Sequence record: PP763253.1
From: Acinetobacter phage Ab1-TPeters
Strand: one strand, 5' to 3'
Length of the DNA stretch: 64,000 nt
The notes beneath the pieces are model-generated. The model was not told where the DNA came from and ran no database searches. It was given only the letters and a program-made list of their open reading frames with translations. Both the position numbers and the translations under genes were made by a program. Every line of letters begins with the position of its first letter. Position 1 is the stretch's first letter. Of the stretch, positions 21,832-62,179 are shown one piece after another.

Positions 21832-21872
21832 CCTGTTTCTTAAAAACTTCATAAGCCTGTTAAATTGTACAG
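21832..21872 (+). promoter_or_regulatory. motif-1 bipartite element CCTGTTTCTTAA-N11-CCTGTTAAATTGTACAGG
   Basis: Immediately after the stop of 20814..21830; 28 nt upstream of 21900. Confidence 0.5.
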
Positions 21873-21899
21873 GTTAAACCCAGGTAAAGGTAAATTAAA

Positions 21900-22202
21900 A
21901 TGACACGTATCGGTAAATTATTAGAAATTAACGAGTCTCTGAAAGTCGAAGAATCTAAAGTTTCTCCTGCTTGGACGACTACAGATAGACGAGAAATCTC
22001 GAAAGAAAAATTTGATGGTCTACTTTGGGAAATGACTTCCTCATTAAGAGGAAAAAGAGATCCATACCCTAGTGTAAATTCTTGGTCTTCAAAAGGAATA
22101 ACTGGAAATCAAAGATATGTTCGAAATTCTGGGTTTAGAACAATTGAATCTCAACACCACCTAGAAAGTGGACAAACTAAATATTTTATATTTAATAAAT
22201 AA
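21900..22202 (+). CDS. small protein with conserved N-terminal leader 'MTRIGKLLEINESL'
   Basis: 100 aa. Preceded by a motif-1 bipartite element. Confidence 0.55.
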   Translation: MTRIGKLLEINESLKVEESKVSPAWTTTDRREISKEKFDGLLWEMTSSLRGKRDPYPSVNSWSSKGITGNQRYVRNSGFRTIESQHHLESGQTKYFIFNK

Positions 22203-22214
22203 AGGTAAATCAAA

Positions 22215-22601
22215 ATGACACGTATTTCTCAAATTCTTGATATGAAAGCTAGGCTTGGTGATGTTAATGAATCTAAAAAGTCAGCTACTGTAAAGGAAGT
22301 TGAAGAATTTATTGGAAGAATTTCTAACAGCAGCCAAGTTGATGTTACTTTTGAAGGCGCAGGTAAATCACATGCTGTCTTTACTCCAGCTACAAGCTTC
22401 GATTTAAAAGGTACTTGGATCTCATTGTTAAAATTAGTTGGTTCAGAAAATGCTAAGTTTGAACCAACTAAAGAGACTAAAGAAGGGAAAGTATCAACTT
22501 GCACGTTTACTTTATCAGATGGTTCATTAAAAGCAACTCGACTTTTAACAAAACGTGGAGTAAAAGAGTTTGTCGCTAGCATAGAACTCATCCTTAAATA
22601 A
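22215..22601 (+). CDS. small protein with leader 'MTRISQILDMKARLGDVNES'
   Basis: 128-aa family member. Confidence 0.5.
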   Translation: MTRISQILDMKARLGDVNESKKSATVKEVEEFIGRISNSSQVDVTFEGAGKSHAVFTPATSFDLKGTWISLLKLVGSENAKFEPTKETKEGKVSTCTFTLSDGSLKATRLLTKRGVKEFVASIELILK

Positions 22602-22602
22602 T

Positions 22603-22655
22603 CCTGTTCCTTAAAATTTGCTGGAGCCTGTTTGTGTAACGGGCTTCGGTTCGCC
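22603..22655 (+). promoter_or_regulatory. motif-1 variant (CCTGTTCCTTAA-N12-CCTGTTTGTGTAA + hairpin GGGCTTCGGTTCGCC)
   Basis: Between 22215..22601 and the beta-prime C-terminal gene. Confidence 0.45.
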
Positions 22656-22683
22656 TAATATAATATCTCTGGAGTAATAAAGT

Positions 22684-24207
22684 ATGAATCCACATGTATC
22701 AAAGGATATGAATGAAATCCACCGCCTATTGGATATGAAGATTCTTAAATTGGGTTCTGCAGTTAAATTTAAAATGGAAGATGGCTGGGTTGATACTACA
22801 GCTGGACGTCTTCTAGTTTGGGAAATCTCTGGTTATCTTCCAGATGACTTCTTGAATAAATCAACAATTAAGAAGTTGATTACACATATCAACAGAAACT
22901 ACCCTGCAGCTGAAGCACTTCGTAGATTGAAGCGAGTTCAACAAATCGGATTTGAAACATCTACACAGAGTGGCATCTCACTTTGCTATGATGACTTTAA
23001 ATTCGACTTTGGAATTGACTTTAAAGAAGTTGAAGGTCAATTATCTAAGATGGAAAAAGATGAGCGTGTTGAGTATGCAGATAAGATTATCAATGAATGC
23101 ACAGCACGTTGGTGGAATGAGGTTGATAAGTCTAATCCTCTTCGTAAGATGGGCGTATCTGGAGCACGTGTAACTGATACCCAAGTTCGTCAAATGATTG
23201 TAGCTAAGGGCATCCTTGGTTCAATGGATGGCAGTATTGCTGATTATCCTATTATGGAATCACTTACAACTGGATTGGGAGTTAATAATTACTTCCAGAC
23301 ATGTGGCCCAGCTCGACGTGGTCTAGCTGATAACTTCTTCGTAGTTCCAGCGTCAGGTTACTTTGCTCGTCAGTTAGTTACTGTTGCACGTGACCTTAAA
23401 ATGGTTGAACATGATTGTGAGACAGTTGAGACGATTTACGTTCCAATTGAATTAGCTCGAGGTCGACATGAGTTAGGTAATCCGAATATCTTGACTAAGA
23501 AAGATATTGAGGAACGATCTGGTGAAATGATTAAGATGCGATCTCCAATTACATGTGAGTCAGCTCTAGGTGGAGTCTGTCAAAAATGTGCTGGTTTAGA
23601 TCCAGCTACTGAAGAGTACTGGCGTATTGGAATGGGTTTAGGTACAGCTTCAGGACAACATGTATCAGAACCTACCACTCAGTTAGGTTTACGTGGTAAG
23701 CACTTGTCAGGTGGTGTGACTCTAGCTGGATTGAAGAAGAATGTAAGTAACGTTCTTGCAGATACATTGAAGACACTAGGTGGTAAGGGTACTCACTTGA
23801 TTGGACCTCAACTAAGTAGCGCTAAAGGATTCCATGAGTATTACGCTGAAGAGAAAGATTGGGTCAAAGCTACAACTAATATTATGTTAGTGGTAACTGA
23901 CATCTTTAAGAATGCTGGAACGAACATCGCTTCAGTTCACTTTGAGATGATTCTTCGTGGTTGTACTGATATCGTCCAGCTAGCTGATGGAACTTCAGGT
24001 CTACGTTCTTTGGGTGCTGAGGGTCGAGTTATGCCGATTCATGTACACGGATATGGTCGTAAGGTTCCTAGCTGGTTGAAGCGACTAGGTTACGGTTACG
24101 TAAATGAGACCATTAAGAAAGCGGTTACTACAATGGAGCCGTCACTTGGTGGATATACAGAGCAAATTATTATGGCTCAATTCGAACACTTAGAAGAAGC
24201 TGAATAA
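22684..24207 (+). CDS. multisubunit RNA polymerase beta-prime subunit, C-terminal half (split gene)
   Basis: 'TTAGRLLVWEI..LP' aligns to the beta-prime region around E. coli residue 800. 'ASGQHVSEPTTQLGLRGKHLSGG' matches the trigger-loop/G-loop signature '[21 protein letters not shown]'. No N-terminal zinc finger or NADFDGD motif, so this is a C-terminal fragment encoded on its own. Confidence 0.7.
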   Translation: MNPHVSKDMNEIHRLLDMKILKLGSAVKFKMEDGWVDTTAGRLLVWEISGYLPDDFLNKSTIKKLITHINRNYPAAEALRRLKRVQQIGFETSTQSGISLCYDDFKFDFGIDFKEVEGQLSKMEKDERVEYADKIINECTARWWNEVDKSNPLRKMGVSGARVTDTQVRQMIVAKGILGSMDGSIADYPIMESLTTGLGVNNYFQTCGPARRGLADNFFVVPASGYFARQLVTVARDLKMVEHDCETVETIYVPIELARGRHELGNPNILTKKDIEERSGEMIKMRSPITCESALGGVCQKCAGLDPATEEYWRIGMGLGTASGQHVSEPTTQLGLRGKHLSGGVTLAGLKKNVSNVLADTLKTLGGKGTHLIGPQLSSAKGFHEYYAEEKDWVKATTNIMLVVTDIFKNAGTNIASVHFEMILRGCTDIVQLADGTSGLRSLGAEGRVMPIHVHGYGRKVPSWLKRLGYGYVNETIKKAVTTMEPSLGGYTEQIIMAQFEHLEEAE

Positions 24208-24216
24208 GCTTCTTCA

Positions 24217-24426
24217 TTGGAGAATAAAATGACTACACGCATTGGTAAAATTTTAGAAATTAATGAATCTTTGTCTAAAGTTTCTGAAGCTGAAAAAGGC
24301 TTTAGTCCGGAACTAAAACAAAAACTAGCTAAACTAAGAGAGAAATTTAATAAAGGTGAAATCTCTGTTGACTACTATAAGGCTATGTCTGAAAGAGCTA
24401 TTAAAGCAGAGCAAGAATCTAAATAA
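24217..24426 (+). CDS. small protein with leader 'MTTRIGKILEINESL'
   Basis: 69-aa family member. Confidence 0.5.
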   Translation: MENKMTTRIGKILEINESLSKVSEAEKGFSPELKQKLAKLREKFNKGEISVDYYKAMSERAIKAEQESK

Positions 24427-24427: not shown

Positions 24428-24481
24428 CCTGTTTCTTAACAAATCCTAAAACCTGTTTGGTTGTGGGCGGGAGTTCCCCGC
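24428..24481 (+). promoter_or_regulatory. motif-1 (CCTGTTTCTTAA-N12-CCTGTTTGGTTGT + hairpin GCGGGAGTTCCCCGC)
   Basis: Upstream of 24486. Confidence 0.5.
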
Positions 24482-24485
24482 TGTT

Positions 24486-24968
24486 TTGTTAAGGAAATTT
24501 ATTATGACTACAATGGCTACAGCTTTAAACCAGATCGCTAATATTGCTTCAGCTTCACCTTGGGATGAAGCTGCAATCCTTAAGAGCAAGATGTCTACAG
24601 ATCAGTTTACATTGCTTGATCTTAAGGATCACATCGATAACTTCCTTGTTAAGGCAACTAAGACTGAGACATGTGAACAGCGTGTTGAGAAAATGAAACT
24701 GGTTGCGTTCAAGTATATCTCTATCCCAATGGGCTCATACTACGGTGATCTCTGGTATGGTTTGAAGAAGTCTGACGTTCCAATGCTTCAGGCTCAAATC
24801 GCTTCAGGTCACAATATGTTAATAACCCCAGCTGACTTGGTTAAGTTAATTGAGATTCAGAAGAAGCGTGGTTATCAGTTTGTATTGAATCTGGAAGTGA
24901 ATCCAGCTGTAGCTAAACACACTGGAGTTGTAAATGTGCAACTTCGTAATATAACTGTGAATGGGTAA
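24486..24968 (+). CDS. hypothetical protein
   Basis: 160 aa. Preceded by a motif-1 element plus a GC hairpin. Confidence 0.5.
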   Translation: MLRKFIMTTMATALNQIANIASASPWDEAAILKSKMSTDQFTLLDLKDHIDNFLVKATKTETCEQRVEKMKLVAFKYISIPMGSYYGDLWYGLKKSDVPMLQAQIASGHNMLITPADLVKLIEIQKKRGYQFVLNLEVNPAVAKHTGVVNVQLRNITVNG

Positions 24969-24973: not shown

Positions 24974-25315
24974 ATGACTACGAGAATTGGTAAATTATTA
25001 AGCAGTAAACAAGCTCTTTCAGAAGTTACTGAATCATCTAAATTTGGTGATTGGCCAGATAATTTCAAGAAAGCTGACGCTCCATTTAATAAAATTAAAC
25101 AAGGTGATACCTTAGTATTTAACAAAGATGAAGAAACAGGCTACACTCCTGAAGGGATAGCTGTGTTTATGTCAGTAAACAATCACATTCTTATTAAACC
25201 TAAAACTAAAGCACCTGGTTCTTTACATCGTGATTTAGTAAGTATGGATGATGATAAATTGTACCTTATTCCTGGTTGGGAATTAGTTAAAGTAAACGGA
25301 AAACCTTTTAAATAA
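24974..25315 (+). CDS. small protein with leader 'MTTRIGKLLSSKQALSEVTES'
   Basis: 113-aa family member. Confidence 0.5.
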   Translation: MTTRIGKLLSSKQALSEVTESSKFGDWPDNFKKADAPFNKIKQGDTLVFNKDEETGYTPEGIAVFMSVNNHILIKPKTKAPGSLHRDLVSMDDDKLYLIPGWELVKVNGKPFK

Positions 25316-25327: not shown

Positions 25328-25606
25328 ATGAGCACACGTATTGGTAAAATCTTAGAAATTAACGAATCACTATCTAATGTAAATGAATCTACAACAAAAC
25401 CTGTAGCTTACCAAAGAGATGGTTGGGGTTATGCTATGATCAAAGAGGGTGGGTCTACTTATGTAGTTGCCCGTAAATCAGCTAGCCGTGATTATATGAA
25501 AGAAACTTTTGGTAGTGCAACTACAGCTAAGGAGCTATTTAAGATAGCTGAAACTCAGATGAGTAAAGGCTTCTTACTATATAAAGATGGAAAAAGAGTT
25601 GGTTAA
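25328..25606 (+). CDS. small protein with leader 'MSTRIGKILEINESL'
   Basis: 92-aa family member. Confidence 0.5.
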   Translation: MSTRIGKILEINESLSNVNESTTKPVAYQRDGWGYAMIKEGGSTYVVARKSASRDYMKETFGSATTAKELFKIAETQMSKGFLLYKDGKRVG

Positions 25607-32135: not shown

Positions 32136-32834
32136 GTGAAATTGATTTTAGTAAGACATGGTGAATCAGTAGCTAACGTTAATCCTAAGCTATATGATTC
32201 AATTCCAGATCACGCTATTCCTTTATCTGATGAAGGTAAGCTTCAAGCTAAATTTACTGGAGGTTTAATCAGTCGGTATCTTAAATCACAGATATGTAAT
32301 ATTCCAGTTGAACACTTGATATATTCTCCATACAATCGAACTAAAGAGACAACTGAGATTATCTACGATAACTTAAATGGTATAGGTATTAATAGTTTCG
32401 TTGAATATGTTGGAATTCATGAAATAGAAATCTATAATAATCACCCAGACATGCGTGAGAGTAATTGCTATAATATAGATGAAATGGAGGAATACGGTAA
32501 GTTCTGGTTCAAACGAGGTACTGCTGAGTCATTAGCTGATGTATATAAAAGAGCCAAACAGTTCTTACGTGATCTAATTGATCTGAATTTGCCTCAAGGA
32601 ACTCCAGTAATTGTTGTAAGTCATCGTGTGTTTTTGAGAGTTCTAACTTCTATTCTTGAGGGTCACACTATCAAGAAATTATGTAAATCCGGTATTAACT
32701 TTAACAATGCTGAAGCACGAGTGTATGACTTAGATACTCAAAACTCTAAGTTCGGAGTCCCTGAGATTTTAGGCATTAAGAAACTAAACGAAAACAAGGA
32801 ATTATCTTATGTTGAAAACTGCACTTTTAATTAG
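32136..32834 (+). CDS. histidine phosphatase superfamily protein (PGAM-like)
   Basis: N-terminal 'LILVRHGESVAN' RHG catalytic motif. Confidence 0.55.
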   Translation: MKLILVRHGESVANVNPKLYDSIPDHAIPLSDEGKLQAKFTGGLISRYLKSQICNIPVEHLIYSPYNRTKETTEIIYDNLNGIGINSFVEYVGIHEIEIYNNHPDMRESNCYNIDEMEEYGKFWFKRGTAESLADVYKRAKQFLRDLIDLNLPQGTPVIVVSHRVFLRVLTSILEGHTIKKLCKSGINFNNAEARVYDLDTQNSKFGVPEILGIKKLNENKELSYVENCTFN

Positions 32835-33541: not shown

Positions 33542-33957
33542 ATAGATTTGAACGTAAGTGGTGCAAACAAAATGGGATTCTTTCAGTTGGGAATTGTCCA
33601 GATAAGTATTTAACTAAAAATTCTGAAGGTGAGTATGAGTCTCAAGCTGTTGAGGCAGCTTATCAGGGATATAAGATGTGTGAAGGTAACATCTCTATTA
33701 TCTCAAGACTTTCAGCTGTAGCTATTGATTTAGAAAACAAAATAGAAAACCTATTTTCTAAATTTGAAGTAAGAACTCCAGCTATGAGAATGAGCTTGGA
33801 GTCAGATTTCAGATGCTGTAAAATGCAATATCAACATCTTATTAATTTTGATGAAAAATTTTATGAACTAGAAGAGCTTCAGTTTTATATTAATTTGCTT
33901 CAATCTAAAATGGATTTTGTCATCGAGAATATAACAGGATTGAAGACTCGCAAATAA
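33538..33957 (+). CDS. hypothetical protein
   Basis: 139 aa, no motif. Confidence 0.4.
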   Translation: MNRFERKWCKQNGILSVGNCPDKYLTKNSEGEYESQAVEAAYQGYKMCEGNISIISRLSAVAIDLENKIENLFSKFEVRTPAMRMSLESDFRCCKMQYQHLINFDEKFYELEELQFYINLLQSKMDFVIENITGLKTRK

Positions 33958-33960
33958 CGT

Positions 33961-33985
33961 CAACACCTGTTAAAGTGTAATAACA
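33961..33985 (+). promoter_or_regulatory. motif-2 variant (CAACACCTGTTAAAGTGTAATAACA)
   Basis: Upstream of 34020. A hybrid of the motif-1 and motif-2 half-sites. Confidence 0.35.
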
Positions 33986-45164: not shown

Positions 45165-45218
45165 CGGGCTGAAACGTCTCGGTTCTATCACGTAACCAAC
45201 CAATAGATAGGTACAATT

Positions 45219-47545: not shown

Positions 47546-47584
47546 GGGCGTCTGTCTTTACTTTAACAAACTGAGATTTACATT

Positions 47585-48536: not shown

Positions 48537-48547
48537 AATCTCTAAAC

Positions 48548-48590
48548 TCCCCTCAAGAGCTGTTTACTTTTGAGGGGAGTTTTTATTTAC
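48548..48590 (+). terminator. rho-independent terminator (CTCCCCTCAAGAGCTGTTTACTTTTGAGGGGAG + TTTTTATTT)
   Basis: Long perfect stem plus a T-run after 48303..48536. Confidence 0.7.
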
Positions 48591-48899
48591 CCAACAATCG
48601 AGGATATTATGAAGAAATACATTATGTCAGTGGAGGTGCCGTCAGTTCTTGACTCACCTTTAATTCAATTTAATACAATGCTAAATGACAAGACTCATCG
48701 TGAGGCTTTTAAGCTAGTTATCAAACAAGAAGCTCTTTCACCTAACTATCTGGATAAGTTGAATAATTCTGAGGTTCGTGAACGAGTTGCTAAGGTAATT
48801 GCCAAGTCAATAGATAAATTTGTTGAGTCAGGTTCAGTTCTTACTTCAAAGACTAATCGAACACCTTCAGTTAGAATTTCAGTAAAACCTGTTCCTTAA
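48570..48899 (+). CDS. hypothetical protein
   Basis: 109 aa. Its stop lies inside the motif-1 first half-site. Confidence 0.4.
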   Translation: MRGVFIYPTIEDIMKKYIMSVEVPSVLDSPLIQFNTMLNDKTHREAFKLVIKQEALSPNYLDKLNNSEVRERVAKVIAKSIDKFVESGSVLTSKTNRTPSVRISVKPVP

Positions 48900-48926
48900 C
48901 ATTGGATAAAGCCTGTTTAAAATGAT
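48888..48926 (+). promoter_or_regulatory. motif-1 (CCTGTTCCTTAA-N12-CCTGTTTAAAATGAT + hairpin GGGGAAAGCCCC)
   Basis: The first half-site contains the stop of 48570..48899; upstream of 48955. Confidence 0.45.
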
Positions 48927-48954
48927 AGGGGAAAGCCCCGCAGGAGTATAAATC

Positions 48955-49270: not shown

Positions 49271-49310
49271 CGAAAACTCGAAATTGACTCCAAACGCTGT
49301 TTAAGTGCCG
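49271..49310 (+). promoter_or_regulatory. extended motif-2 variant (AAAACTCGAAATTGACTCCAAACGCTGTTTAAGTGCC)
   Basis: Upstream of the DNA ligase gene. Confidence 0.45.
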
Positions 49311-51602: not shown

Positions 51603-51634
51603 AAACACTTTAAAAGTAGGAAAAACGCTGTTTT

Positions 51635-51690
51635 CCTGTTTCTTAAACAATCTACAAGCCTGTTGAAATGTCGGGGCGGTTCGAACCGCC
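51635..51690 (+). promoter_or_regulatory. motif-1 (CCTGTTTCTTAA-N12-CCTGTTGAAATGT + perfect hairpin GGCGGTTCGAACCGCC)
   Basis: Upstream of 51725. Followed by TATAATAT and ACTGGAGT. Confidence 0.5.
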
Positions 51691-51724
51691 TTATACTTTT
51701 ATAATATACACTGGAGTTTATATC

Positions 51725-52351: not shown

Positions 52352-52380
52352 GGGGAGTTTAGGCTCCCCTAATTTTTGTA
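52352..52380 (+). terminator. rho-independent terminator (GGGGAGTTTAGGCTCCCC + TAATTTTTG)
   Basis: After 51725..52345. Confidence 0.65.
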
Positions 52381-52418
52381 CTTAGGATTTACGCTGGATA
52401 GGTCTCTGAAATAACCTG

Positions 52419-52436
52419 AAAAGCTGTTTTTAGTAG
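52419..52436 (+). promoter_or_regulatory. motif-2 core (AAAAGCTGTTTTTAGTAG)
   Basis: Upstream of the P-loop kinase at 52448. Confidence 0.4.
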
Positions 52437-52447: not shown

Positions 52448-53170
52448 ATGTCGTTAAACAAATATTCAGTGGTTTTCTCAGGGACTCAAGGTTCAGGTAA
52501 AACCACTTTAACAAACGCTTGGTCAAAATTAGCTGGAATTCCATATAAAGCAGTTGAGACTAGAAAGTACGTGCCTGAGGGCATTTCTTCACATAAAGAT
52601 ATTATTAATCTTTCTGTAACTAACCCTGAAGTAGCTATTAAATTCCAATCTGATTTAATTCAGAACCGATTCAAACTCTTCAGTGAGTTAATGGAATCAG
52701 ATCAAAAGTTCACTAGTGATCGTGCTGTCATTGACAGTTATGTTTATTACTTGATGCATAACTCAATGTTTGCATGTGAAGAGAACAATCTAGCAAATAA
52801 TGGATTTACTCAAGCAAGTGTTGGTCTATACGATCTAACTGTCTTAATAAATCCTAAGCCTATACATGTTGAAGACGACAGCTTCAGAATTTCAAATTTA
52901 TTCTACAACCGTGCCTATGCTGATTTACATAAGGCTACAACACTTAGAATTTATGATGCGATTTTCGGTAATGCTAAGACATTGTCTAGCTACTCTCACG
53001 AAGGTGAGTTATACAATAATCTTCGCTCTTCAATAACTATGCATGTAGCTAAAACTCAATCTGGATATAAGCGTGGATTGATTATTCTTAATGAACCAGA
53101 TGGTATGATTCCAACTGAAAAACGCTTAAACCTAATTTCTAACGCAGTAAATGCATTTGACCAAATGTAA
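52448..53170 (+). CDS. P-loop nucleoside/nucleotide kinase-like protein
   Basis: 'VVFSGTQGSGKTTLTN' Walker A at the N-terminus. About 240 aa. Directly upstream of the TS-fold enzyme and preceded by motif 2. Confidence 0.5.
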   Translation: MSLNKYSVVFSGTQGSGKTTLTNAWSKLAGIPYKAVETRKYVPEGISSHKDIINLSVTNPEVAIKFQSDLIQNRFKLFSELMESDQKFTSDRAVIDSYVYYLMHNSMFACEENNLANNGFTQASVGLYDLTVLINPKPIHVEDDSFRISNLFYNRAYADLHKATTLRIYDAIFGNAKTLSSYSHEGELYNNLRSSITMHVAKTQSGYKRGLIILNEPDGMIPTEKRLNLISNAVNAFDQM

Positions 53171-53179
53171 GGAAATAAA

Positions 53180-54229
53180 ATGAAATCTTTTGCAGTGCAA
53201 AGTGCCAATCAAGCATTATATGAGTTGACTCAAGAATGTAAGAATGAAGGCTTTAGTTATTCAACAGAAACTTCTCATAATTCAACACCAGTTGTTTCAC
53301 TAGGTCTAACTCACTTAGAGCTTACTAATCCACTAAATCGCTTTATTAATATTAAAGGTCGAAATACTAACATCTTTGGTATTATTGGTGAGTGCATCTG
53401 GGTTCTATCTGGTTCAGCTGAACTAGGTGATTGGATGAAAACTTTAGTTCCTCGATCACCAGATTATGCAGATAATGGTGATACATGGCGTGCAGGTTAT
53501 GGCGAACGAATCTATTACAATGGTCAGATCAACTCTGTAATTGACAGATTAAAACGAGATAATAAAACTCGTCAAGCAGTTCTCTCAATTTATGACCCTA
53601 GCCGTGACACAGATGCTGGAATTAGTGCGGAAATCGGTTCTATTAATACCAAAGATCACGTTTGTAATATGTCAATGGCGTTTAAGATTCGTGATGGCAA
53701 GCTAAACATGACTCTGTTCAACCGCAGTAATGATATCTACTGGGGTTTGTTAAATGTTAACGTTCCAGAATTCACTCTTATTCAAGAGATCATTGCTGCT
53801 TACGTTGGTGTTGAAGTCGGTTCATATAATATTATCTCAGATGATTGTCATATGTATCAAATGCCAGTCATCATGAAACAAGCAGAAGCTGTAATTGAAA
53901 ATTATAACTGGATTGATTCGACAGGTCATGACGATCGTAAGTTGGAATTAAGCCCTAAGATTAATAATATTAATCTTTTGAGAAAGTTCTGTGAGCGAAT
54001 TATCTTTGAATCTGAGATTACTAACGAGAATTCAATTGAGGATTATGATCGTCGAATTCTTTCTATTATTGAAGAGTTTAAAGTTACTGGCAAATTAGCA
54101 GATTACGTTAAAATGGCTTGTTACTATTATGCTTCAACTCTAGGTGTAATTTACCCACGCCTTCGTGATTTAGAATCGTCTTATCTGGAAGAGTTAATCG
54201 ATAACTCTTACTTCAATCCCACGAAGTAA
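53180..54229 (+). CDS. divergent thymidylate-synthase-fold enzyme (dNMP C5-methylase/hydroxymethylase family)
   Basis: 'CNMSMAFKIRDGKLNMTLFNRSNDIYWGLLNVNVPEFTLIQEII..DDCHMY' aligns block-for-block with ThyA '[50 protein letters not shown]'. The catalytic Cys and the R-S pair are conserved, and an Asn sits near the ThyA N177 position. The canonical CH..QFYV block is not conserved. Confidence 0.65.
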   Translation: MKSFAVQSANQALYELTQECKNEGFSYSTETSHNSTPVVSLGLTHLELTNPLNRFINIKGRNTNIFGIIGECIWVLSGSAELGDWMKTLVPRSPDYADNGDTWRAGYGERIYYNGQINSVIDRLKRDNKTRQAVLSIYDPSRDTDAGISAEIGSINTKDHVCNMSMAFKIRDGKLNMTLFNRSNDIYWGLLNVNVPEFTLIQEIIAAYVGVEVGSYNIISDDCHMYQMPVIMKQAEAVIENYNWIDSTGHDDRKLELSPKINNINLLRKFCERIIFESEITNENSIEDYDRRILSIIEEFKVTGKLADYVKMACYYYASTLGVIYPRLRDLESSYLEELIDNSYFNPTK

Positions 54230-55926: not shown

Positions 55927-56644
55927 GGCCATGCTGACCTCGATCTTCAACTTTCCTGAGGAGTTTCGAGTAACTTCGAACCCTCGACCTAGAAAGGGGT
56001 TGTTCATTGGTAGTATCAATAAATGTGCACGTTATCTTCTAATTGCAATGAAAGTACCTAAGCAGTTAAATGGTATTAATGTAGTTTACTTAGAAAACGT
56101 TCAGATGTCTTCTAACGCTGATTATATCGTTAGCATGGGCAATGAGATTGAGAATGTCATGAGACGACATTTGAAATATCGTAAAGTGCCAATCCATGCA
56201 GATCAAATGCAGATAACTGAACTGGACGGTAAGATCAGAGGATTCCTTGACTTCGGTGTTGAAGTTGAAGGAATTGGTATGATTATTATTGATGCCAAGG
56301 GAATGAGTGAATCTGTATTTGCTCGATTCACTGCTGCAGCAACTTTGCTGGATTTCAAAGAAGATTACTTCTATCAGGTTCTTCATTACATCAATTCAGT
56401 TAAGCTAGAATATGGCTATATTGTTGGTGTTAATAGATCAACTGGGCAAGTTGCGGTTAAGGAAGTTTCTCGAGCTAAATACCAAGACTTATATAATAAG
56501 TCAATGGAACGTAGCAAGAAAATAATTGTTACTCCTATTGAAGAGTATCATACTCTTGAAGCTGCACCAGATAATGAATGTACTCAATGTGAATTCGTAT
56601 CTGCGTGCCGCCCAGAATTTTACGCCAGTTTAGGTGTAAATTGA
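55913..56644 (+). CDS. putative PD-(D/E)xK nuclease with C-terminal Cys cluster (Cas4/RecB-nuclease-like)
   Basis: 'GIGMIIIDAKG' resembles the (D/E)xK core. C-terminal 'ECTQCEFVSACRP' is a Cx2Cx5C cluster, as in Cas4-type FeS nucleases. Confidence 0.4.
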   Translation: MNPREAMLTSIFNFPEEFRVTSNPRPRKGLFIGSINKCARYLLIAMKVPKQLNGINVVYLENVQMSSNADYIVSMGNEIENVMRRHLKYRKVPIHADQMQITELDGKIRGFLDFGVEVEGIGMIIIDAKGMSESVFARFTAAATLLDFKEDYFYQVLHYINSVKLEYGYIVGVNRSTGQVAVKEVSRAKYQDLYNKSMERSKKIIVTPIEEYHTLEAAPDNECTQCEFVSACRPEFYASLGVN

Positions 56645-56647
56645 GAT

Positions 56648-56665
56648 CAACAGCTGTTTAATTTG
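56648..56665 (+). promoter_or_regulatory. motif-2 core (CAACAGCTGTTTAATTTG)
   Basis: Upstream of the DEAH helicase. Confidence 0.45.
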
Positions 56666-58376: not shown

Positions 58377-58742
58377 ATGATTCATCATAACTTAACGATT
58401 CTTGAGGGAGCGATTATTAAAGTAGAGCAGTGTTTTAGTAACACTGTCTCTCTTTCTCAAGAAAACAAATCAAATCCTATCTTACGTAAGATTAACCTTA
58501 ATAGAAATGGATTTATTCTAACTCCTAAAACTACAGTGCATATTCAAGTTGGATTTGATTATGACTACTGTGCTTACCATTTAAATGATGTGAAGCCATC
58601 TAAAGCAGTTCGTGAAAGTAATTTAATTTTAAATAATTTTTACGTAGATGAAGGAAAGACGTTTGTAACTGTAACTAATATGAATTCTTCTAATTCTGTG
58701 AGACTAGAACCTGGTGAGGTTTTAGGCTCTATAATGATGTAA
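58377..58742 (+). CDS. hypothetical protein
   Basis: Track 58350. The ATG just after the helicase stop is the likelier start. Confidence 0.4.
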   Translation: MIHHNLTILEGAIIKVEQCFSNTVSLSQENKSNPILRKINLNRNGFILTPKTTVHIQVGFDYDYCAYHLNDVKPSKAVRESNLILNNFYVDEGKTFVTVTNMNSSNSVRLEPGEVLGSIMM

Positions 58743-58757
58743 AAAGCTGTTTAATAA
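58741..58757 (+). promoter_or_regulatory. motif-2 core (AAAAGCTGTTTAATAAA)
   Basis: About 22 nt upstream of the DNA polymerase start. Confidence 0.45.
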
Positions 58758-58778
58758 AAGAAGTGTAAGGAAAACGTA

Positions 58779-61700
58779 ATGACCAAATTTTTGACTGACT
58801 TGACTTTACAAGATCAGGCTGTTTTTATTCTGTTATCTCAAACCAACAACTCAAGAGCATTTGAGAATGGTTATGCTGCTGACTTCTTAAATTTTGTTAC
58901 TATTAACTCTCCTCATCGAATTGGTTATGTTGAAATTACCAATGAAAATGAAGAGCATGTTCTTAATCAAGAAGAAATTTCTAAGTTGAAAGATTTAGTT
59001 GGAAACCGTAAGGTTATTCTTTTAGGTAAGAACACAGTAAAAGCAATTGCTGGTGAGTTGATTAACAACCGAGTTCGTTATTTATCTTTGTTGGATATGT
59101 CATACTTGACTTGTGCTAACTTAGGTAAAGTAGCGATTTGTGGTCACCCAATGTCTTACAAAGACGTCTTTAAAGGAAATGTTGATGCTCAACAGAAACT
59201 TATTCTACGTGTTGATGAGTTAATTCAGCCACGTGCTAAAGAATATGAAGTTGAAATTGTAGCTCCCTCACTGGACGATCTTGAAGACATCTTAAATCTA
59301 TGTGCCAATCAACCAGCCATTGGTTACGACATTGAAGCAAACGATTTAGATATTTGGGCAGCTCACTGGGAAAAGAACTTATTTAGTCTGTCAGTGTTCG
59401 AATCAGAATCTAAACTTATGTCATTCTGGTTTAACTGGCGTGAATTTACTTCGGATCATAAGAGATTATTTGAAAATTTCTTAGATAAGAATCAGTCTAA
59501 AATTTGGACTTACAACTGTACATATGAAATCCAAGCAGCTTGGAGAGTCTTCGGTAAACGTTACTTATTTCAAGATGCTTTGATCTTAACTACTATGGAT
59601 GCTAACCGTGGTGATCTTAAGACTAACGCTCGTAAGTATTTGAAATGTGATTTCTGGGAAGATGAGCTAGCGAGTATTCGTGATGTTTATGAAGCCTTTT
59701 TCAAATTATTCTTAGATAAAGGTAAAAAGAATTCAATACATGATGAGTTCAAAGCTTTTGTTAAATCAGATCAATTCCAGAATTTAGATAATCTTCGTGA
59801 GTTTCTGATTTCTAAGGGTAGAAAACCAGAATGGATGAATGATATTAATGATTTAGCAGTTGCTTTAGGTGAAGATGAAGTAGTCAAAGGTATCTCTGAA
59901 TTTCCATATCAGTGGTCAGCAGTTCCATTCGACATTTTAGGTAAATACTGTTGTTACGATTCAGCTTACACTCTGCCAATTGCAGCTAAACTGTACGGTA
60001 AGTATGAGAAAGGATATAAACATTACATCAAACACCCTTGGTTAGCTTGTATCTTTGAAGCATGGGGATGTGGTTGGGATGAATCTAAAGCTAAGGAAGT
60101 TGAGAAAGATTATTTACGTTTGATGAATGAATCTCTAAGTGAATTGATCTTAAATCTTCAACCTAAGTTAGGTCTTCGAGCTCTAGATGTTAAACCGATT
60201 CTTCAGTGGAAATTACCACATGAGGCTACTTCATACACAGCTACAGGTAAAGAACGTAAACATAAGGTGTTGTCTGAGTACGATCGTCATGGTTGGATTA
60301 AAGGTATTTACAATCCTGGTTCAAACACGGCTGATGCTCGAGCTGTATTCTGGGATGTTTACTTAACAGAACGAGTTGAGTTAGCAACATTTGCATATAC
60401 TCTTGTCAATGATCTTCGATTCAGAGGAATCTGGGAGAAGTTACTGATTAAGATGATTGAAATGACAGAGTTCAAGTCTAAAGATGAAAGTAAGACTGAG
60501 AACGAATTCTTAACTGAATATGGTGCAGCTCAAGTTCTTGAAATGTTGTCAGTATTCTTAGAAAATCCAAATTTAACTGATCGTGAGACAGTTAAGATCT
60601 TGGCTTCTAGTTTCACTGAGACGAATAAGACCTATAAAGACAATACTGGACGTAACGCTAAAGAAGTAATGGCAGCTCAGTATGAGATTCAATGTCAATT
60701 CTTTGGTGTTGACATTGATGATGAATCTACTTGGACTCCTGAATTCAAGATTCTATTCTTACTTCAGAAATATAAGAAAGTAGCGAAAGCTCTGTCTACT
60801 TATGTTAATGGTAAGTTAGGTCGAGGATGTGTATGGTTGTCTAAAGTATTTCCAGATCGTCCTCCAGTTCGATTGAAACCTTATCATGAGGTTGAGGAAG
60901 GATATAAACTTAAACTTGATGAGAAGTTAATTGCATTCTATGACTTTAATAGTTTGTCTGCATCAACTCACCGTTGGGGATCTGGATTCCATACTATTAG
61001 CCCAGGTGTAGCTATCCGCAGTGCTTTAGTTCCGTACTACAGCAATCAGATCTGGACTCATATTGACTTTAGTCAGGCTGAGTTGGTGATGTTGGCATTC
61101 TTCAGTCAAGACCCTAACATGATTAAAGTATTCATGGAAGGTGGAGATATGCACAGATATGTAGCTAGTCTAGTGTATCAGAAGAAGCCTGAGGATGTTA
61201 CTTCAGAAGAACGTCGTGTAGCTAAGACAGTATCATTTGGTATTGTTTACGGTAAGGGTATTGAGAACTTAGCTCTAGAAATCACTGGAGGTGATGTTCC
61301 TCGTGCTCAAGCAATTTTCGATGCTTTCTTCGTGTCATTCCCTGGAATCAAGAAATGGATGGATGAGCGTAAGACTCAAGGTCGTGAAACAGGTAAGGTG
61401 ACTAATCTGTTTGGTGCATTGATTGAGGTGGAAGATGGCTTCAGTAAAGGTAACGCTATTGATCGTCACTCAGTAAACTACCCAATCCAGTCTTCATCTT
61501 CAATGGTTGCTGGTGGTTCAATGTACGACTTGTGTTCTACAGTTGACCAACAAGGAATCTTTGGAACTGGAGTTGGATTCGTGCACGATGCATTAGATCA
61601 TACAGTTGATATCGACAATCTGGTTAACTTCTTAGTTTATTCTAAGAAAGTGATGCAGGATCAAGTTTATGAAGAACTTGGTACTCCGATGAAGATTGAC

Positions 61701-61988
61701 CAAGAGATTGGTGCGACAGCTCTAGACTTATGTGAGCTGAAGAGCTTCACTGAACTTGAAAATGGTTTAGAAATCATTCTCGGAGGTGACGAAGAGGCTG
61801 TAAATAAACTGGTTGACAAGTTTAGAGTAGAGAGTGCTAAGTACGTTATTGACAACACTGAAATCATTGACAGTTCAGACTCATATACATCTTGGGAAGG
61901 ATTGTTTACTGAGAAAGGTGCATATAGTTCAGATCGTGGTCAAACGTTAAAGAAAGTTAAGACTAAAGTGACTCTTCGCTATAGTTAA
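58779..61988 (+). CDS. family A DNA polymerase (Pol I-like, with 3'-5' exonuclease domain)
   Basis: Exo I 'YDIEAN'. Motif A 'IDFSQAELVMLAFFS' (DYSQIELR). Motif B 'RRVAKTVSFGIVYGKG' (RxxxKxxxFGxxYG). Motif C 'VHDAL' (VHDE). Preceded by motif 2; a hairpin terminator follows. Confidence 0.8.
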   Translation: MTKFLTDLTLQDQAVFILLSQTNNSRAFENGYAADFLNFVTINSPHRIGYVEITNENEEHVLNQEEISKLKDLVGNRKVILLGKNTVKAIAGELINNRVRYLSLLDMSYLTCANLGKVAICGHPMSYKDVFKGNVDAQQKLILRVDELIQPRAKEYEVEIVAPSLDDLEDILNLCANQPAIGYDIEANDLDIWAAHWEKNLFSLSVFESESKLMSFWFNWREFTSDHKRLFENFLDKNQSKIWTYNCTYEIQAAWRVFGKRYLFQDALILTTMDANRGDLKTNARKYLKCDFWEDELASIRDVYEAFFKLFLDKGKKNSIHDEFKAFVKSDQFQNLDNLREFLISKGRKPEWMNDINDLAVALGEDEVVKGISEFPYQWSAVPFDILGKYCCYDSAYTLPIAAKLYGKYEKGYKHYIKHPWLACIFEAWGCGWDESKAKEVEKDYLRLMNESLSELILNLQPKLGLRALDVKPILQWKLPHEATSYTATGKERKHKVLSEYDRHGWIKGIYNPGSNTADARAVFWDVYLTERVELATFAYTLVNDLRFRGIWEKLLIKMIEMTEFKSKDESKTENEFLTEYGAAQVLEMLSVFLENPNLTDRETVKILASSFTETNKTYKDNTGRNAKEVMAAQYEIQCQFFGVDIDDESTWTPEFKILFLLQKYKKVAKALSTYVNGKLGRGCVWLSKVFPDRPPVRLKPYHEVEEGYKLKLDEKLIAFYDFNSLSASTHRWGSGFHTISPGVAIRSALVPYYSNQIWTHIDFSQAELVMLAFFSQDPNMIKVFMEGGDMHRYVASLVYQKKPEDVTSEERRVAKTVSFGIVYGKGIENLALEITGGDVPRAQAIFDAFFVSFPGIKKWMDERKTQGRETGKVTNLFGALIEVEDGFSKGNAIDRHSVNYPIQSSSSMVAGGSMYDLCSTVDQQGIFGTGVGFVHDALDHTVDIDNLVNFLVYSKKVMQDQVYEELGTPMKIDQEIGATALDLCELKSFTELENGLEIILGGDEEAVNKLVDKFRVESAKYVIDNTEIIDSSDSYTSWEGLFTEKGAYSSDRGQTLKKVKTKVTLRYS

Positions 61989-61989
61989 T

Positions 61990-62030
61990 TAAGATTGGGA
62001 TTCTTCGGAATCCCGATTTTTAGGGCAGTT
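61990..62030 (+). terminator. terminator-like hairpin (GGGATTCTTCGGAATCCC + GATTTTTAGG)
   Basis: Directly after the DNA polymerase stop. Confidence 0.6.
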
Positions 62031-62049
62031 TGAAACTCGCAAATGAGTC

Positions 62050-62066
62050 TAAAAGCTGTTTCTTAG
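62050..62066 (+). promoter_or_regulatory. motif-2 core (AAAAGCTGTTTCTTAG)
   Basis: After the polymerase terminator; merges into a motif-1-like copy. Confidence 0.35.
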
Positions 62067-62142
62067 AAAGTGTTGAAGCCTGTTCTTTTTACAGGGCTTT
62101 GGCACTTTAGGTGCAGGATAAAGTAGGGGAAACAGCTGTTTT

Positions 62143-62179
62143 CCTGTCTCTTAAAAGTTGCTAAAACCTGTTTCGTTGT
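62143..62179 (+). promoter_or_regulatory. motif-1 (CCTGTCTCTTAA-N12-CCTGTTTCGTTGT)
   Basis: Upstream of 62243. Preceded at about 62053-62095 by a second degenerate copy (GCTGTTTCTTAG..CCTGTTCTTTTTACAGG). Confidence 0.45.

Follow-up and report, generated by a model that had tools for sequence, protein, structure and literature searches.

A recurrent two-box element at gene boundaries of Acinetobacter phage Ab1-TPeters, a probable class of phage-specific promoters

In the window (the whole stretch of 64,000 nucleotides of Acinetobacter phage Ab1-TPeters that was analysed), a two-box element with a total length of 37 bp recurs at 13 gene boundaries, which confirms the recurrent composite element described in an earlier note on this DNA. 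The element probably constitutes one of two classes of phage-specific two-box promoters; such a class is ordinary in kind, yet undescribed for this phage group. The phage possesses a split multisubunit RNA polymerase (RNAP) and genes of the thymidine-hypermodification type, and its DNA is probably non-canonical, with modified T.

Structure, number and position of the copies

The 13 copies yield the consensus (C/G)CTGTYTCTTAA-N12-CCTGTTwAnnTgT, in which (C/G)CTGTYTCTTAA is box 1, and box 2 reads A-R-CCTGTT-W-A-n-n-T-G/A-T in its fuller form. Full copies were called with two mismatches allowed and by reading of their context. About 13 boundaries had been claimed for 21832-62179; 12 copies lie there, and the thirteenth is situated outside this range, at 7839-7875. 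With up to one mismatch, CCTGTTTCTTAA is matched 11 times in the 64-kb window against 0.75 matches expected, and none of 100 shuffles reaches 11, whereas CCTGTT-N15-20-CCTGTT is matched 7 times against 0.03 expected. An independent test was made with a position matrix trained solely on 10 copies from related phages, which recovers exactly these 13 copies, 12 of them with 34-44 bits and copy 48888 with 12 bits, and which also gives 12.3 bits to one site that exhibits box 2 only (core at 33966, motif-2 class, see below). On the minus strand of the window no score exceeds 4.3 bits, and in 20 shuffles the maximum of the same matrix is 6.7 bits. The copies, named after the start of box 1, are the following:

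7839-7893, plus strand: two-box copy outside 21832-62179, 42.1 bits; box 1 GCTGTCCCTTAT 7839-7850, box 2 CCTGTTAAGTTGT 7863-7875, hairpin GGGCGGGTTGGTTCGCTC 7876-7893; intrinsic-terminator-type hairpin with T-run upstream, about 7779-7809; 143-aa gene next, at 7927; orthologous to L001 2558
21832-21874, plus strand: two-box copy, 43.6 bits; box 1 21832-21843, box 2 21856-21868; hairpin GCCTGT..ACAGGT 21855-21874 with box 2 as 5' arm; leader-family gene downstream, at 21900; orthologous to L016 785 and L001 18315
22603-22645, plus strand: two-box copy, 39.0 bits; box 1 22603-22614, box 2 22627-22639; hairpin AGCCTGTT..AACGGGCT 22625-22645, including a G-T pair; gene of the RNAP beta' C-terminal half next, 22684-24207; orthologous to L016 1169 and L017 9916
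24428-24491, plus strand: two-box copy, 44.1 bits; box 1 24428-24439, box 2 24452-24464; hairpin GGCGGGAGTTCCCCGCT 24466-24482, then GTTTTGTT; 154-aa gene next, at 24504; orthologous to L016 3088 and L001 22092, where the hairpin sequences differ
36924-36987, plus strand: two-box copy, 36.6 bits; box 1 36924-36935, encoding P-V-S-stop at the end of gene 36663-36935; box 2 36948-36960; long hairpin CCTGTTTAGG...CCTAAACAGG 36948-36987 (-23.4 kcal/mol) with box 2 as 5' arm; small ORF downstream, at 36996
43204-43292, plus strand: two-box copy, 39.8 bits; box 1 43204-43215, box 2 43228-43240; hairpin CCTGT..ACAGG downstream, then weak hairpin 43243-43257 and, further downstream, classical terminator GGAGACTTCGGTCTCC plus T5, 43265-43284; next gene from 43301
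44711-44762, plus strand: two-box copy, 38.6 bits; box 1 44711-44722, box 2 CCAGTTAAATTGT 44735-44747; hairpin about 44748-44762; next gene at 44785
45128-45185, plus strand: two-box copy, 44.1 bits; box 1 45128-45139, box 2 45152-45164; weak hairpin 45166-45185; next gene at 45219
47509-47567, plus strand: two-box copy, 39.8 bits; box 1 CCTGTTTGTTAA 47509-47520, box 2 47533-47545; 14-bp hairpin 47536-47567 overlapping box 2; small membrane-type ORF at 47585
48888-48939, plus strand: two-box copy, 12.2 bits; box 1 48888-48899, encoding P-V-P-stop of the upstream gene; box 2 CCTGTTTAAAATG 48912-48924; hairpin GGGGAAAGCCCC 48928-48939; signal-peptide-like ORF at 48955
51627-51692, plus strand: two-box copy, 34.1 bits; box 1 51635-51646, box 2 51659-51671; additional GCTGTT core 8 nt upstream, at 51627; hairpin GGGGCGGTTCGAACCGCCTT 51673-51692; next gene at 51725
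62035-62095, plus strand: hybrid two-box/motif-2 site, 35.2 bits; complete motif-2 unit (ACTCGCAAATGAG..AAAAGCTGTTTCTTAG) whose core doubles as box 1 62055-62066; box 2 CCTGTTCTTTTTA 62079-62091; hairpin CCTGT..ACAGG 62079-62095; terminator 61997-62014 upstream
62135-62179, plus strand: two-box copy, 40.0 bits; box 1 62143-62154, box 2 62167-62179; additional GCTGTT core at 62135; upstream of gene 62243-62824, which is followed by the gene of the RNAP beta' N-terminal half from 62837

Concerning the spacing, the distance of 23-24 bp between the cores given earlier has to be narrowed: it is fixed, at exactly 24 bp in all 23 copies from the window and the relatives, and the invariant bases of these 23 copies are grouped into the two blocks. 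The position at the junction of a stop codon and the next gene, also noted earlier, applies throughout, as all 13 copies lie on the gene strand and are intergenic or cover only the final codons of the upstream gene, and a start codon with a ribosome-binding site is found 30-63 nt past the end of box 2. Box 1 indeed supplies the last codons and the stop at 36924 and 48888; however, the conclusion that coding sequence is sacrificed for the element goes too far. This is ordinary genome compaction: in all related phages, the upstream gene has its stop codon next to the upstream box or overlapping it.

The motif scan suggested as a check, run on the window with the relatives' matrix, thus returned 13 plus-strand, intergenic copies, and a dispersed repeat present also inside genes, which would speak against the note, is not what is found: the window contains neither minus-strand nor intragenic copies. 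When the exact pattern was searched in 596 Gb of prokaryotic genomes, JGI metagenomes and IMG/VR, single chance matches were all that appeared, and none of the 48 genome or metagenome loci fetched contained a second copy. On account of the single orientation, the lack of intragenic copies and the result of these scans, a host element and a mobile repeat of the MITE or REP type are rejected.

Motif 2 and the downstream hairpins

Motif 2, the second class, also consists of two boxes, the upstream box aCTCnnAAATnrA being followed by AAnA-GCTGTTTAAAGTG. The CTGTT core is common to box 2 and motif 2, whereas the upstream boxes are quite different. That the replication genes carry motif 2 instead of the two-box element is borne out by the sites found before them:

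2935-2967, plus strand: motif-2 site, core 2955
8365-8397, plus strand: motif-2 site, core 8385; gene of the topoisomerase II large subunit downstream
13243-13298, plus strand: motif-2 site, core 13263; strong hairpin with T-run directly after it, 13271-13298; glycosyltransferase genes downstream
16825-16861, plus strand: motif-2 site, core 16845; doubles as sigma-70-type TTGAGT-N17-TACAAT
17561-17597, plus strand: motif-2 site, core 17581; doubles as sigma-70-type TTGACC-N17-TACAAT
18241-18273, plus strand: motif-2 site, core 18261; tRNA region downstream
19494-19526, plus strand: motif-2 site, core 19514
33946-33978, plus strand: motif-2 site, core CCTGTT 33966; like box 2 without box 1
39858-39890, plus strand: motif-2 site, core 39878; weaker match
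49276-49308, plus strand: motif-2 site, core 49296; gene of the NAD-dependent DNA ligase downstream
52403-52435, plus strand: motif-2 site, core 52423; terminator 52352-52369 upstream; kinase-like and thymidylate-synthase-like genes downstream
56633-56665, plus strand: motif-2 site, core 56653; helicase gene downstream
58726-58758, plus strand: motif-2 site, core 58746; gene of the family A DNA polymerase downstream

About a third of the motif-2 sites lack TAnnnT, including the ones that precede the genes of the topoisomerase, the ligase and PolA.

The GC hairpin reported to follow the element is real and specific to the two-box class, but it is neither universal (it is lacking, e.g., in L001 18315) nor conserved in sequence. 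Over the 35 nt past box 2 the mean folding energy is -6.9 kcal/mol, compared to -4.5 for motif 2 (p = 0.007) and -3.7 for other pre-start regions (p = 0.0001). Compared to their own composition-matched shuffles, the same segments reach a mean z of only -0.74, a modest stability, such that much of the hairpin effect is due to GC content. In about 9 of the 23 copies, box 2 itself is paired to sequence further downstream, once via a G-T pair. The hairpins differ in position and sequence among copies, no covarying pairs are found, and of the Rfam covariance models only two tRNAs reach the gathering score in the window, so that the element matches no family.

A T-run follows the hairpin in 4-5 of the 13 copies, and the scan for intrinsic terminators recognizes only those at 7839, 24428, 43204 and 51635, the remaining hairpins being without a T-run. 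At these four copies, hairpin and T-run are situated downstream of the start proposed below, which counts against a promoter; they could cause termination of the local transcript. Classical terminators also exist upstream of the element, before 7839 and 62055 (see list), and there the order is therefore the usual one of terminator, then promoter.

RNA polymerase genes and conservation among relatives

The beta' C-half gene (22684-24207) contains PF04998, PF04983 and PF05000, and the N-half gene, which extends from 62837 to the end of the window and continues beyond it, contains PF04997 and PF00623 with zinc finger and NLLGKRVDFSGRS motifs. A two-box element precedes each half, and in each relative genome only a single N-half and a single C-half were detected. 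Among the best 25 of the 43 Pfam families of the window proteins there is no sigma-like or known specificity factor, no single-subunit RNAP and no family of the MotA/AsiA type. The PolA is of the YerA41/SP-15 type. The genomes of the relatives comprise 111-171 kb, and on that basis the phage is not a jumbo phage.

In relatives with 79-91% identical beta', the same element is found at orthologous junctions. At four such junctions (beta' 91% and 79%), both boxes are kept, but the spacer (8 nt), the leader and the sequence of the hairpin are not the same; the boxes are evidently under purifying selection there. Between the gene at 20560 and the beta' gene, the window contains three small genes, L016 two and phage 3098 four, and in all of them these differing genes are flanked by the element; phage 3098 additionally possesses decayed copies consisting of box 1 only.

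The complete genome of the E. coli phage IME392 contains 26 homologous sites of the form CCGCTCTTTT-N13-AAAGGCTGTTAAnnTG, all 26 on the coding strand and distributed over the replication, nucleotide-metabolism, RNAP and small-ORF arms, with none of the 26 in the structural and lysis module (61-104 kb). Likewise, no site is found among the virion and tail genes of the window (24.5-33.9 kb). L018 and L019 exhibit a form similar to that of IME392, and the Ralstonia phage RP13 the variant AACGACGCTAT-N~10-GAGACCTTGTA, in one case 14 nt upstream of a tRNA-Ser gene; in all these phages the spacing is fixed and an upstream stop codon adjoins. The CTGTT core is, on this comparison, clade-wide. In IME392 and RP13, the upstream boxes repeat the core at best weakly (IME392: GCTCTT vs. 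GCTGTT at 21 bp; RP13: cGACgcTaT vs. aGACctTgT at about 18 bp).

Candidate promoter function, alternatives and similar systems

We infer a promoter function because the element is strand-specific, intergenic, positioned 30-63 nt before start codons and kept at orthologous junctions, because its core is common to a second motif class and to distant relatives, and because the structural module of a complete relative genome is without it. Box 2 would be the core element near -10: with a start at the conserved T-G or at the following G-run, CCTGTT would be located at about -11 to -6, and box 1, 24 bp upstream at about -35 to -24, would be a class-specific upstream element recruiting or positioning the polymerase or a specificity factor. 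The leader would comprise about 30-65 nt, usually opening with a G-rich segment or the GC hairpin. As an insulator or leader structure, the hairpin would probably attenuate transcription arriving from the upstream gene, and would probably also fold or stabilise the local transcript at its 5' end; box 2 is the 5' arm of the hairpin in roughly one copy out of three, and there only incoming transcripts would therefore form it.

The plain host sigma-70 holoenzyme would not be the enzyme that reads these promoters. Most likely this is the phage multisubunit RNAP, together with a specificity subunit also supplied by the phage; the second choice is a host RNAP that some phage factor redirects. Recognition by the phage RNAP is plausible for the candidate promoter. 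The class probably serves early or middle genes, i.e., small accessory genes, the leader family and both beta' halves. If the phage has a single multisubunit RNAP whose genes lie behind these promoters, this RNAP would have to be delivered with the virion or would not be the first polymerase to read them, which keeps the model of host RNAP plus factor alive.

A T4 middle promoter consists of a MotA box at around -30 and a sigma-70 -10 element, and SPO1 gp28 and gp33/34 use two-box promoters of phage sigma factors. In these systems, as presumably in the element, the place of the -35 is taken by an upstream box peculiar to the phage, at a constant distance from an element in the -10 region, and different upstream boxes define different gene classes, downstream recognition being common. 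However, the consensus sequences are unrelated, the -10 region of the element is without the sigma-70 essentials, and the 25 Pfam families considered above include no MotA, AsiA or sigma homologue. A plain sigma-70 promoter (-35 TTGACA, -10 TATAAT, 16-18 bp) is rejected for the two-box element: the consensus scan flags only copy 48888 (TTAACA-16-TAAAAT), and the sole -35-like hexamer of the element (TTAAnn) would leave a spacer of 15 nt. In each quarter of the window, the number of sigma-70-like sites is below that in shuffled sequence.

It is nevertheless conceivable, albeit unlikely, that host sigma-70 RNAP uses box 2 (TGnTAnnnT) as an extended -10, with box 1 bound by a phage activator or sigma appropriator in the manner of a T4 middle promoter, and that the phage RNAP is left with the motif-less late genes only. 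The extended -10 (TGnTAAnnT, or TG-n-T-A-n-n-n-T) fits all 26 IME392 sites and 15 of the 23 two-box copies, with T30, T35 and TG nearly invariant, and this counts against the explanation as a phage-specific promoter class. Box 1 is placed where a MotA-type box would be, and the sites drive non-structural genes including those of the RNAP, which, with a single beta' set detected per relative genome, would need another polymerase first if the RNAP is unpackaged. Yet T(-7) has an equivalent in 22 of the 23 copies and the critical A(-11) in only 14; the nine copies without it include 24428, 36924, both copies before the beta' N-half operon and, ahead of the beta' C-half, the conserved orthologues 22603 and L016 1169. 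The C-T-G-T-T, invariant even there, does not consist of bases read by sigma-70, about a third of the motif-2 sites are without TAnnnT as well, no sigma-70 -35 exists at a permissible spacing, and MotA/AsiA-type families are missing from the 25 Pfam families.

An RNA-level cassette for 3'-end formation, processing or attenuation appears very improbable. It would act on the upstream gene's transcript, either as an endonuclease site separating cistrons or by signalling a pause or termination in a sequence-specific manner. Such a cassette would suit the facts that in every phage the element starts at the preceding gene's stop codon or overlaps it, that a hairpin with an occasional T-run follows, and that box 2 can pair with sequence downstream of it. 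ATCTGTT is the class II pause/termination signal of T7 RNAP, which box 1 (ATCCTGTTTCTT) presumably resembles, but no single-subunit RNAP is among the 25 Pfam families. What is conserved is primary sequence at fixed positions, without covarying pairs or an Rfam match, whereas the hairpins vary or are absent; genuine terminators, when present, precede the element; motif 2 and most IME392 sites possess the core without a hairpin; and the RP13 site directly before a tRNA fits initiation.

Of the two functions offered in the earlier note, a promoter fits the comparisons, whereas the dimeric-regulator site is weak. As an operator, two CTGTT half-sites 24 bp apart would bind a tandem or dimeric regulator that switches a gene class, with the actual promoter elsewhere or overlapping. 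(C/G)CTGT(T/C) is present in both boxes in direct orientation at the rigid 24 bp, in the window phage and the 79-91% relatives, and at 51627 and 62135 a further core is added 8 nt upstream. An operator is hardly to be expected, though, because the upstream box of IME392 and RP13 is no clear repeat of the core and motif 2 pairs the same core with an unrelated upstream box; moreover, the 30-63 nt leaders contain no other promoter-like sequence, and box 1 as an activator site, which it could be, is already covered by the promoter explanation.

Among promoters of jumbo-phage multisubunit RNAPs, the late promoter of AR9 is A(-11)ACA-N6-T-A/G(+1), which requires dU and is recognized in the template strand (PMC7598289), that of phiKZ is T(-3)ATG(+1), and the early motifs are AT-rich, about 10 nt long and centred near -10 (PMC7598289, PMC5449584). 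These phages and the window phage have in common split beta' homologues and short, highly conserved phage-specific motifs near a presumed -10, with a T-G or T-A step at the would-be start. These motifs were identified computationally in front of non-structural operons, among them RNAP genes, and late structural genes are without them. Probably non-canonical DNA is a further trait in common with AR9 (U there, modified T here). However, the jumbo-phage promoters are single short elements without a -35-type box, whereas the element has two boxes at fixed spacing and a conserved CTGTT on the non-template strand that is not AT-rich, and the window phage is no jumbo phage, with a single beta' set detected per relative genome. 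An AR9 late-type promoter is rejected: AACA-N6-TA is found only in 4-5 motif-2 copies, read literally as AACA-GCTGTT-TA (among them 2955, 8385, 16845 and 56653), and CTGTT is the conserved block. AACA is unconserved, most copies having AAAA, AAGA or AAAC, and AAAR precedes CCTGTT in the two-box class.

The closest analogue appears to be the promoter-early stem-loop (PeSL) cassette of the T4-like phages RB49, phi1, PST and nt-1. Experiments on PeSLs demonstrated mini-circle formation as well as activity as terminators and as promoters; their promoters follow the sigma-70 consensus and host RNAP reads them, and analogous elements were noted at the internal-protein loci of T4 (PMC2839356, PMC4122927). 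The element would work like a PeSL without being a member of the family. The alternative of a combined terminator/promoter cassette raised earlier is thus partly right, in that hairpin plus promoter would behave as a PeSL-type composite. Differences consist in the promoter part, which in the element does not follow the sigma-70 consensus, in the common core of its boxes and their rigid 24-bp register, and in the unrelated phage (multisubunit RNAP, PolA of the YerA41/SP-15 type); corresponding activities of the element would be predictions. Both exhibit the order of upstream stop, two promoter-type boxes, GC-rich (polyG...polyC) stem-loop, Shine-Dalgarno and start codon, the stem-loop overlapping the -10-type box or lying just downstream, with G-T pairs possible (PMC2839356). 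Both occur in many copies, which cluster at the borders of small orphan genes, and the PeSL-like elements at the T4 internal-protein loci resemble in this the element flanking the leader family of small genes. In both, the gene content between copies varies among close relatives, whereas the flanking core genes stay.

Structure and position of the two-box element

The two-box element consists of box 1, 12 nt and box 2, often followed by a GC-rich hairpin, and its copies are named here by the start of box 1. In the window, CCTGTTTCTTAA is matched 11 times at up to one mismatch (0.75 expected) and CCTGTT-N15-20-CCTGTT seven times (0.03 expected). The occurrence at about 13 gene boundaries, as described in the earlier note, holds: 12 complete copies lie within 21832-62179, and a thirteenth is situated outside this range, at 7839-7875. 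All copies align without gaps as (C/G)CTGT(T/C)(T/C)CTTA(A/G), 12 nt ending in R-A-R, and CC(T/A)GTT-W-A-n-n-T-(G/A)-T. Scored with a position matrix derived from ten copies from related phages only, 12 window copies reach 34-44 bits and copy 48888 reaches 12 bits; nothing above 4.3 bits is found on the opposite strand of the window, and shuffles attain at most 6.7. The box-to-box distance is 24 bp in all 23 copies of the window and its relatives, among which C2, T3, G4, T5, T9 and T10 of box 1 and A23, C25, C26, G28, T29 and T30 of box 2 are invariant and T35 is kept in 22.

Every copy is on the gene strand and is situated between genes or extends no further than into the final codons of the gene before it; both overlaps with an upstream gene that had been described (P-V-S-stop and P-V-P-stop) are right. 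Box 2 is followed after 30-63 nt by a start codon with a ribosome-binding site. The genes behind the element are small accessory genes, leader-family genes (small genes with a shared N-terminal leader) and both halves of the RNA polymerase (RNAP) subunit beta'. Motif 2, the second promoter-like class, precedes the replication genes, as had been claimed, and also the tRNA region, and the genes for virion and tail proteins (25.7-31.8 kb) are preceded by neither class. An additional core lies 8 nt 5' of box 1 at 51627 and 62135, and at 62035-62095 a whole motif-2 unit doubles as box 1 of a two-box element.

The GC hairpin previously noticed behind the element is likewise borne out as a feature of the class: the 35 nt past box 2 have an average folding energy of -6.9 kcal/mol, compared with -4.5 after motif-2 cores (p = 0.007) and -3.7 in other regions before start codons (p = 0.0001), and the first 12 nt after box 2 contain 63% G+C (genome 37%). 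A T-run comes after the hairpin in four or five copies. In about 9 of the 23 copies box 2 itself forms the 5' arm, such that only transcripts coming in from upstream could fold these hairpins. A conserved RNA structure was rejected, the hairpins being variable in sequence and position and of modest stability relative to shuffles, although the enrichment at the level of the class is real.

Gene content and close relatives

Every gene of the window lies on the plus strand, at a G+C content of about 37%. Encoded are a DnaB-like helicase, an SbcCD-like nuclease, topoisomerase II, two glycosyltransferases, an NAD-dependent ligase, a thymidylate-synthase homologue, a primase, a helicase, a family A DNA polymerase of 1069 aa, and tail and virion proteins. 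The beta' subunit of a multisubunit RNAP is split into two genes (C-terminal half, 22684-24207; N-terminal half, from 62837 to the window end); a beta (Rpb2-type) gene was not recognised within the window. The halves are 39 kb apart here and about 1.5 kb apart in two more distant relatives (loci L018 and L019).

When 8 kb of the window were compared by megablast with 50,697 phage records, no nucleotide match appeared, and relatives were identified through protein searches only. The nearest by protein is Acinetobacter phage vB_AbaM_3098 (beta' identity 78.5%), followed by the Escherichia coli phages EP_H11 and IME392 (about 49%) and Ralstonia phage RP13 (about 39%); the beta' search found no related loci in IMG/VR or metagenomes. 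Only one N-half and one C-half of beta' are detectable per relative genome. The record of phage 3098 (PV081573) is a 55.6-kb 'complete circular' deposit in which every CDS is hypothetical. It has no match to the beta' N-half of the window and is absent among the PolA matches listed; a larger genome was probably assembled only in part, possibly owing to modified DNA that sequences poorly.

IME392 and RP13 are among the phages with a DNA polymerase resembling that of YerA41, and YerA41, SP-15 and Carin-5 are placed among the hypermodified-thymidine phages (2025 paper, PMC12686479). In the window, a corresponding gene set comprises the thymidylate-synthase homologue, two GT4 glycosyltransferases, kinase-like P-loop proteins, a histidine phosphatase and the long PolA, which is related to the YerA41, SP-15 and RP13 type. 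Judged by this gene content, the phage probably hypermodifies thymidine.

Thymidine-hypermodification-type gene set in the window (plus strand)
13327-15593
32136-32834
35525-36663
52448-54229
58779-61988

The same two-box element is found in phage 3098 as GCTGTTTCTTAA-N12-CCTGTTAAGGTAT, with seven copies in the 41.5 kb examined, and a Logan contig with 91% identical beta' contains three copies. Four junctions are orthologous: those that precede a leader-family gene, the beta' C-half and the 154-aa gene behind beta', and the one that follows the SbcC-like gene. All four have kept both boxes but differ in an 8-nt spacer, in the sequence of the hairpin and in the leader; for instance, box 2 is followed by the hairpin GGGCGGGAGTTCCCCGC in the window, by GTCGCAGAGCGAC in L016 (a locus of a close relative) and by CGTCTTTGACG in 3098. 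Between conserved anchors, differing small genes are bounded by the element (three in the window, two in L016, four in 3098), and many of them belong to the leader family, with the N-terminus M(T)TRIGKILEINESLSxVNES.

Leader-family genes
Window, plus strand, 21900-22202
Window, plus strand, 22215-22601
Window, plus strand, 24229-24426
Window, plus strand, 24974-25315
Window, plus strand, 25328-25606
Phage 3098 (L001), at 18380, 18714, 19611 and 21534
Close relative's locus (L016), at 856 and 3641

In these genes about 20 aa are conserved at the N-terminus and the rest is unrelated; they are clustered round the beta' C-half and beside virion genes. This arrangement is reminiscent of the leaders that target the internal proteins of T4 to the capsid, and a protease site after V-N-E is possible. 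Two decayed elements of 3098 (L017, another locus of this phage, at 9575; L001 at about 18690) have box 1 (GCTGTTCCTTCA, GCTGCTCCTTCA) and a similar spacer, whereas CCTGTT of box 2 is gone; leader-family paralogues lie downstream, consistent with local duplication of a gene plus its promoter.

Motif 2 and more distant relatives

Motif 2 is also composed of two boxes, aCTCnnAAATnrA and, after 7-8 nt, AAnA-GCTGTTTAAAGTG, and its core CTGTT-W-A..T-G is common to box 2 of the two-box element. In the complete genome of IME392, the top over-represented 9-mers derive from AAAGGCTGTTAA, and CCGCTCTTTT is always situated at a fixed distance 5' of it, directly after the upstream stop codon. All 26 sites are on the coding strand, within the two arms of non-structural genes (1-61 kb; 104-116 kb), and the module for terminase, capsid, tail and lysis is free of them. 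In contigs whose beta' is 51-52% identical, the same AAAAGGCTGTTAA..TGT occurs, and RP13 possesses AACGACGCTAT, about 10 nt and GAGACCTTGTA, with one site 14 nt upstream of a tRNA-Ser gene. From motif 2 and the forms in IME392 and RP13, an architecture common to the clade emerges: upstream stop codon, variable upstream box, and conserved core at a fixed distance.

Motif 2 looks like the ancestral class, since its upstream box in 3098 (CTCTCTAATCG) resembles GCTCTTTT of IME392. The two-box class, whose upstream box resembles the core, has arisen as a second class in the Acinetobacter-phage lineage. It is this likeness that was described earlier as a direct repeat; the reading as a site for a dimeric regulator is weakened by IME392 and RP13.

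Promoter reading and polymerase

The element is a real, conserved regulatory element. Most probably it represents a class of phage-specific promoters to which an insulating or leader hairpin is attached. Such a promoter-type reading, already suggested in the earlier note, is favoured by the confinement to the gene strand and to intergenic positions 30-63 nt before a start codon with a ribosome-binding site, by two invariant blocks in rigid spacing, by classical terminators lying, where present, upstream of the element, by sequence conservation without covariation, by the RP13 site near a tRNA, and by the restriction to particular gene classes. If transcription started, as we infer, at the conserved T-G or the G-run after it, CCTGTT would lie at about -11 to -6 and box 1 at about -35 to -24.

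These six lines of evidence are poorly explained by a terminator, by a processing site or by a mobile repeat. Concerning a dispersed repeat, the exact two-box pattern has 23 matches in 596 Gb of genomes, 12 in IMG/VR and 25 in JGI metagenomes, all of them single chance matches per contig; a second copy occurs at none of 48 genome and metagenome loci, and box-1 matches with one mismatch in the IMG/VR loci examined are no more than the few that chance gives. Box 1 also resembles the T7 class II terminator; this reading was set aside, and no supporting single-subunit RNAP was seen among the top 25 of 43 Pfam families of the window's proteins. As a general explanation, sigma-70 was rejected: sigma-70-like sites are below the expectation from dinucleotide shuffles in all window quarters (47/53, 36/51, 31/50, 33/40), and in box 2, read as TGnTAnnnT, the essential A(-11) is missing in 9 of 23 copies, including orthologously conserved ones before both beta' halves. 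TAnnnT also fails at about one third of the motif-2 sites before key replication genes. Host RNAP acting with a phage factor is still a live rival, since TGnTAAnnT fits all IME392 cores and, around the tRNAs and small ORFs, three motif-2 sites are also near-consensus sigma-70 promoters. Two of these share the conserved spacer GCTGTTTAAAG and may be used by two polymerases.

Motif-2 sites that are also near-consensus sigma-70 promoters
16833-16861, TTGAGT-N17-TACAAT
17569-17597, TTGACC-N17-TACAAT

A further possibility, which we consider rather unlikely, is that the sites are native two-box promoters, -35/-10-like, of the multisubunit RNAP of a non-jumbo phage, possibly delivered with the virion, and that interchangeable upstream boxes define gene classes. 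Known promoters of jumbo-phage RNAPs are single short motifs close to the start site (AACA-N6-T-A/G in AR9, TATG in phiKZ), whereas two boxes are present here, and an AR9-type AACA-N6-TA reading fits a minority of motif-2 sites only. Given the single beta' set detectable per relative genome, either this RNAP is virion-delivered and reads the sites, or another enzyme acts first. Since the invariant positions (CTGTT, TCTT) are T-rich and the phage probably hypermodifies thymidine, the bulky modified base might be needed, or at least tolerated, for recognition by such a native RNAP, in a role comparable to that of dU, required by the RNAP of AR9. For the genes downstream of the element, PHROGs and Pfam yielded almost no functions, and timing was therefore judged from the distribution of the IME392 sites together with that in the window; it suggests early or middle classes, the late promoters having gone unrecognised. 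The situation is the same in phiKZ and AR9, for which only early motifs were found bioinformatically (PMC7598289).

The element is not a new kind of system. In promoter/stem-loop cassettes (PeSLs) of T4-like phages, an upstream stop codon is followed by a two-box promoter, a polyG/polyC stem-loop, which lies over or behind the -10 box and serves as terminator or attenuator of incoming transcription, the SD and the start codon, and these cassettes are concentrated at the borders of variable small genes (PMC2839356, PMC4122927). The two-box element with its hairpin matches this layout and shares the association with variable small genes, and it would work like a PeSL cassette; it differs in its non-sigma-70 consensus and in belonging to a poorly studied, unrelated phage lineage, to which the idea of regulatory cassettes as recombination joints would thereby be extended. 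Neither a description of promoters (IME392, RP13, YerA41, SP-15, 3098) nor a characterisation of transcription was found in the literature for this clade, and the consensus, the two-class architecture and the clade-wide variants appear undescribed in the literature searched. A two-box promoter for a phage multisubunit RNAP would, if true, be new. The clade, including 3098, IME392, EP_H11 and RP13, unites split multisubunit RNAP genes, YerA41/SP-15-type PolA and thymidine-hypermodification-type genes. With a sharp promoter set (two classes, one core, clade-wide variants), its transcription becomes directly testable, with handles on the reading polymerase, its packaging in the virion and modified thymidine in promoter recognition. 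The sites also permit annotation of operons and timing where proteins are almost all 'hypothetical', and phage 3098 is under development as a therapy against A. baumannii.

Concerning terminators, sites of the intrinsic type are about two times as frequent as in shuffles in three window quarters out of four, and they cluster between genes on the plus strand. Within 43228-43292, about 25 nt downstream of the 43204 element, there is a classical terminator (GGAGACTTCGGTCTCC plus T5), and a start at box 2 of this copy would yield a short transcript (about 50 nt) or else an attenuated leader. In the terminator at 48544-48582, a strong 16-bp hairpin with a T-run, the loop contains a motif-2-like core (AGAGCTGTTTAC) and the stem contains ACTC-type sequence; this may be a promoter turned terminator or a dual element. 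An Rfam scan of the window returned two tRNAs (tRNA-Arg(TCT), 18399-18475; tRNA-Met, 18862-18936) and nothing else; the long stretches without convincing ORFs around them (18270-19120, 19782-20012) may contain uncharacterised small RNAs or degraded tRNAs.
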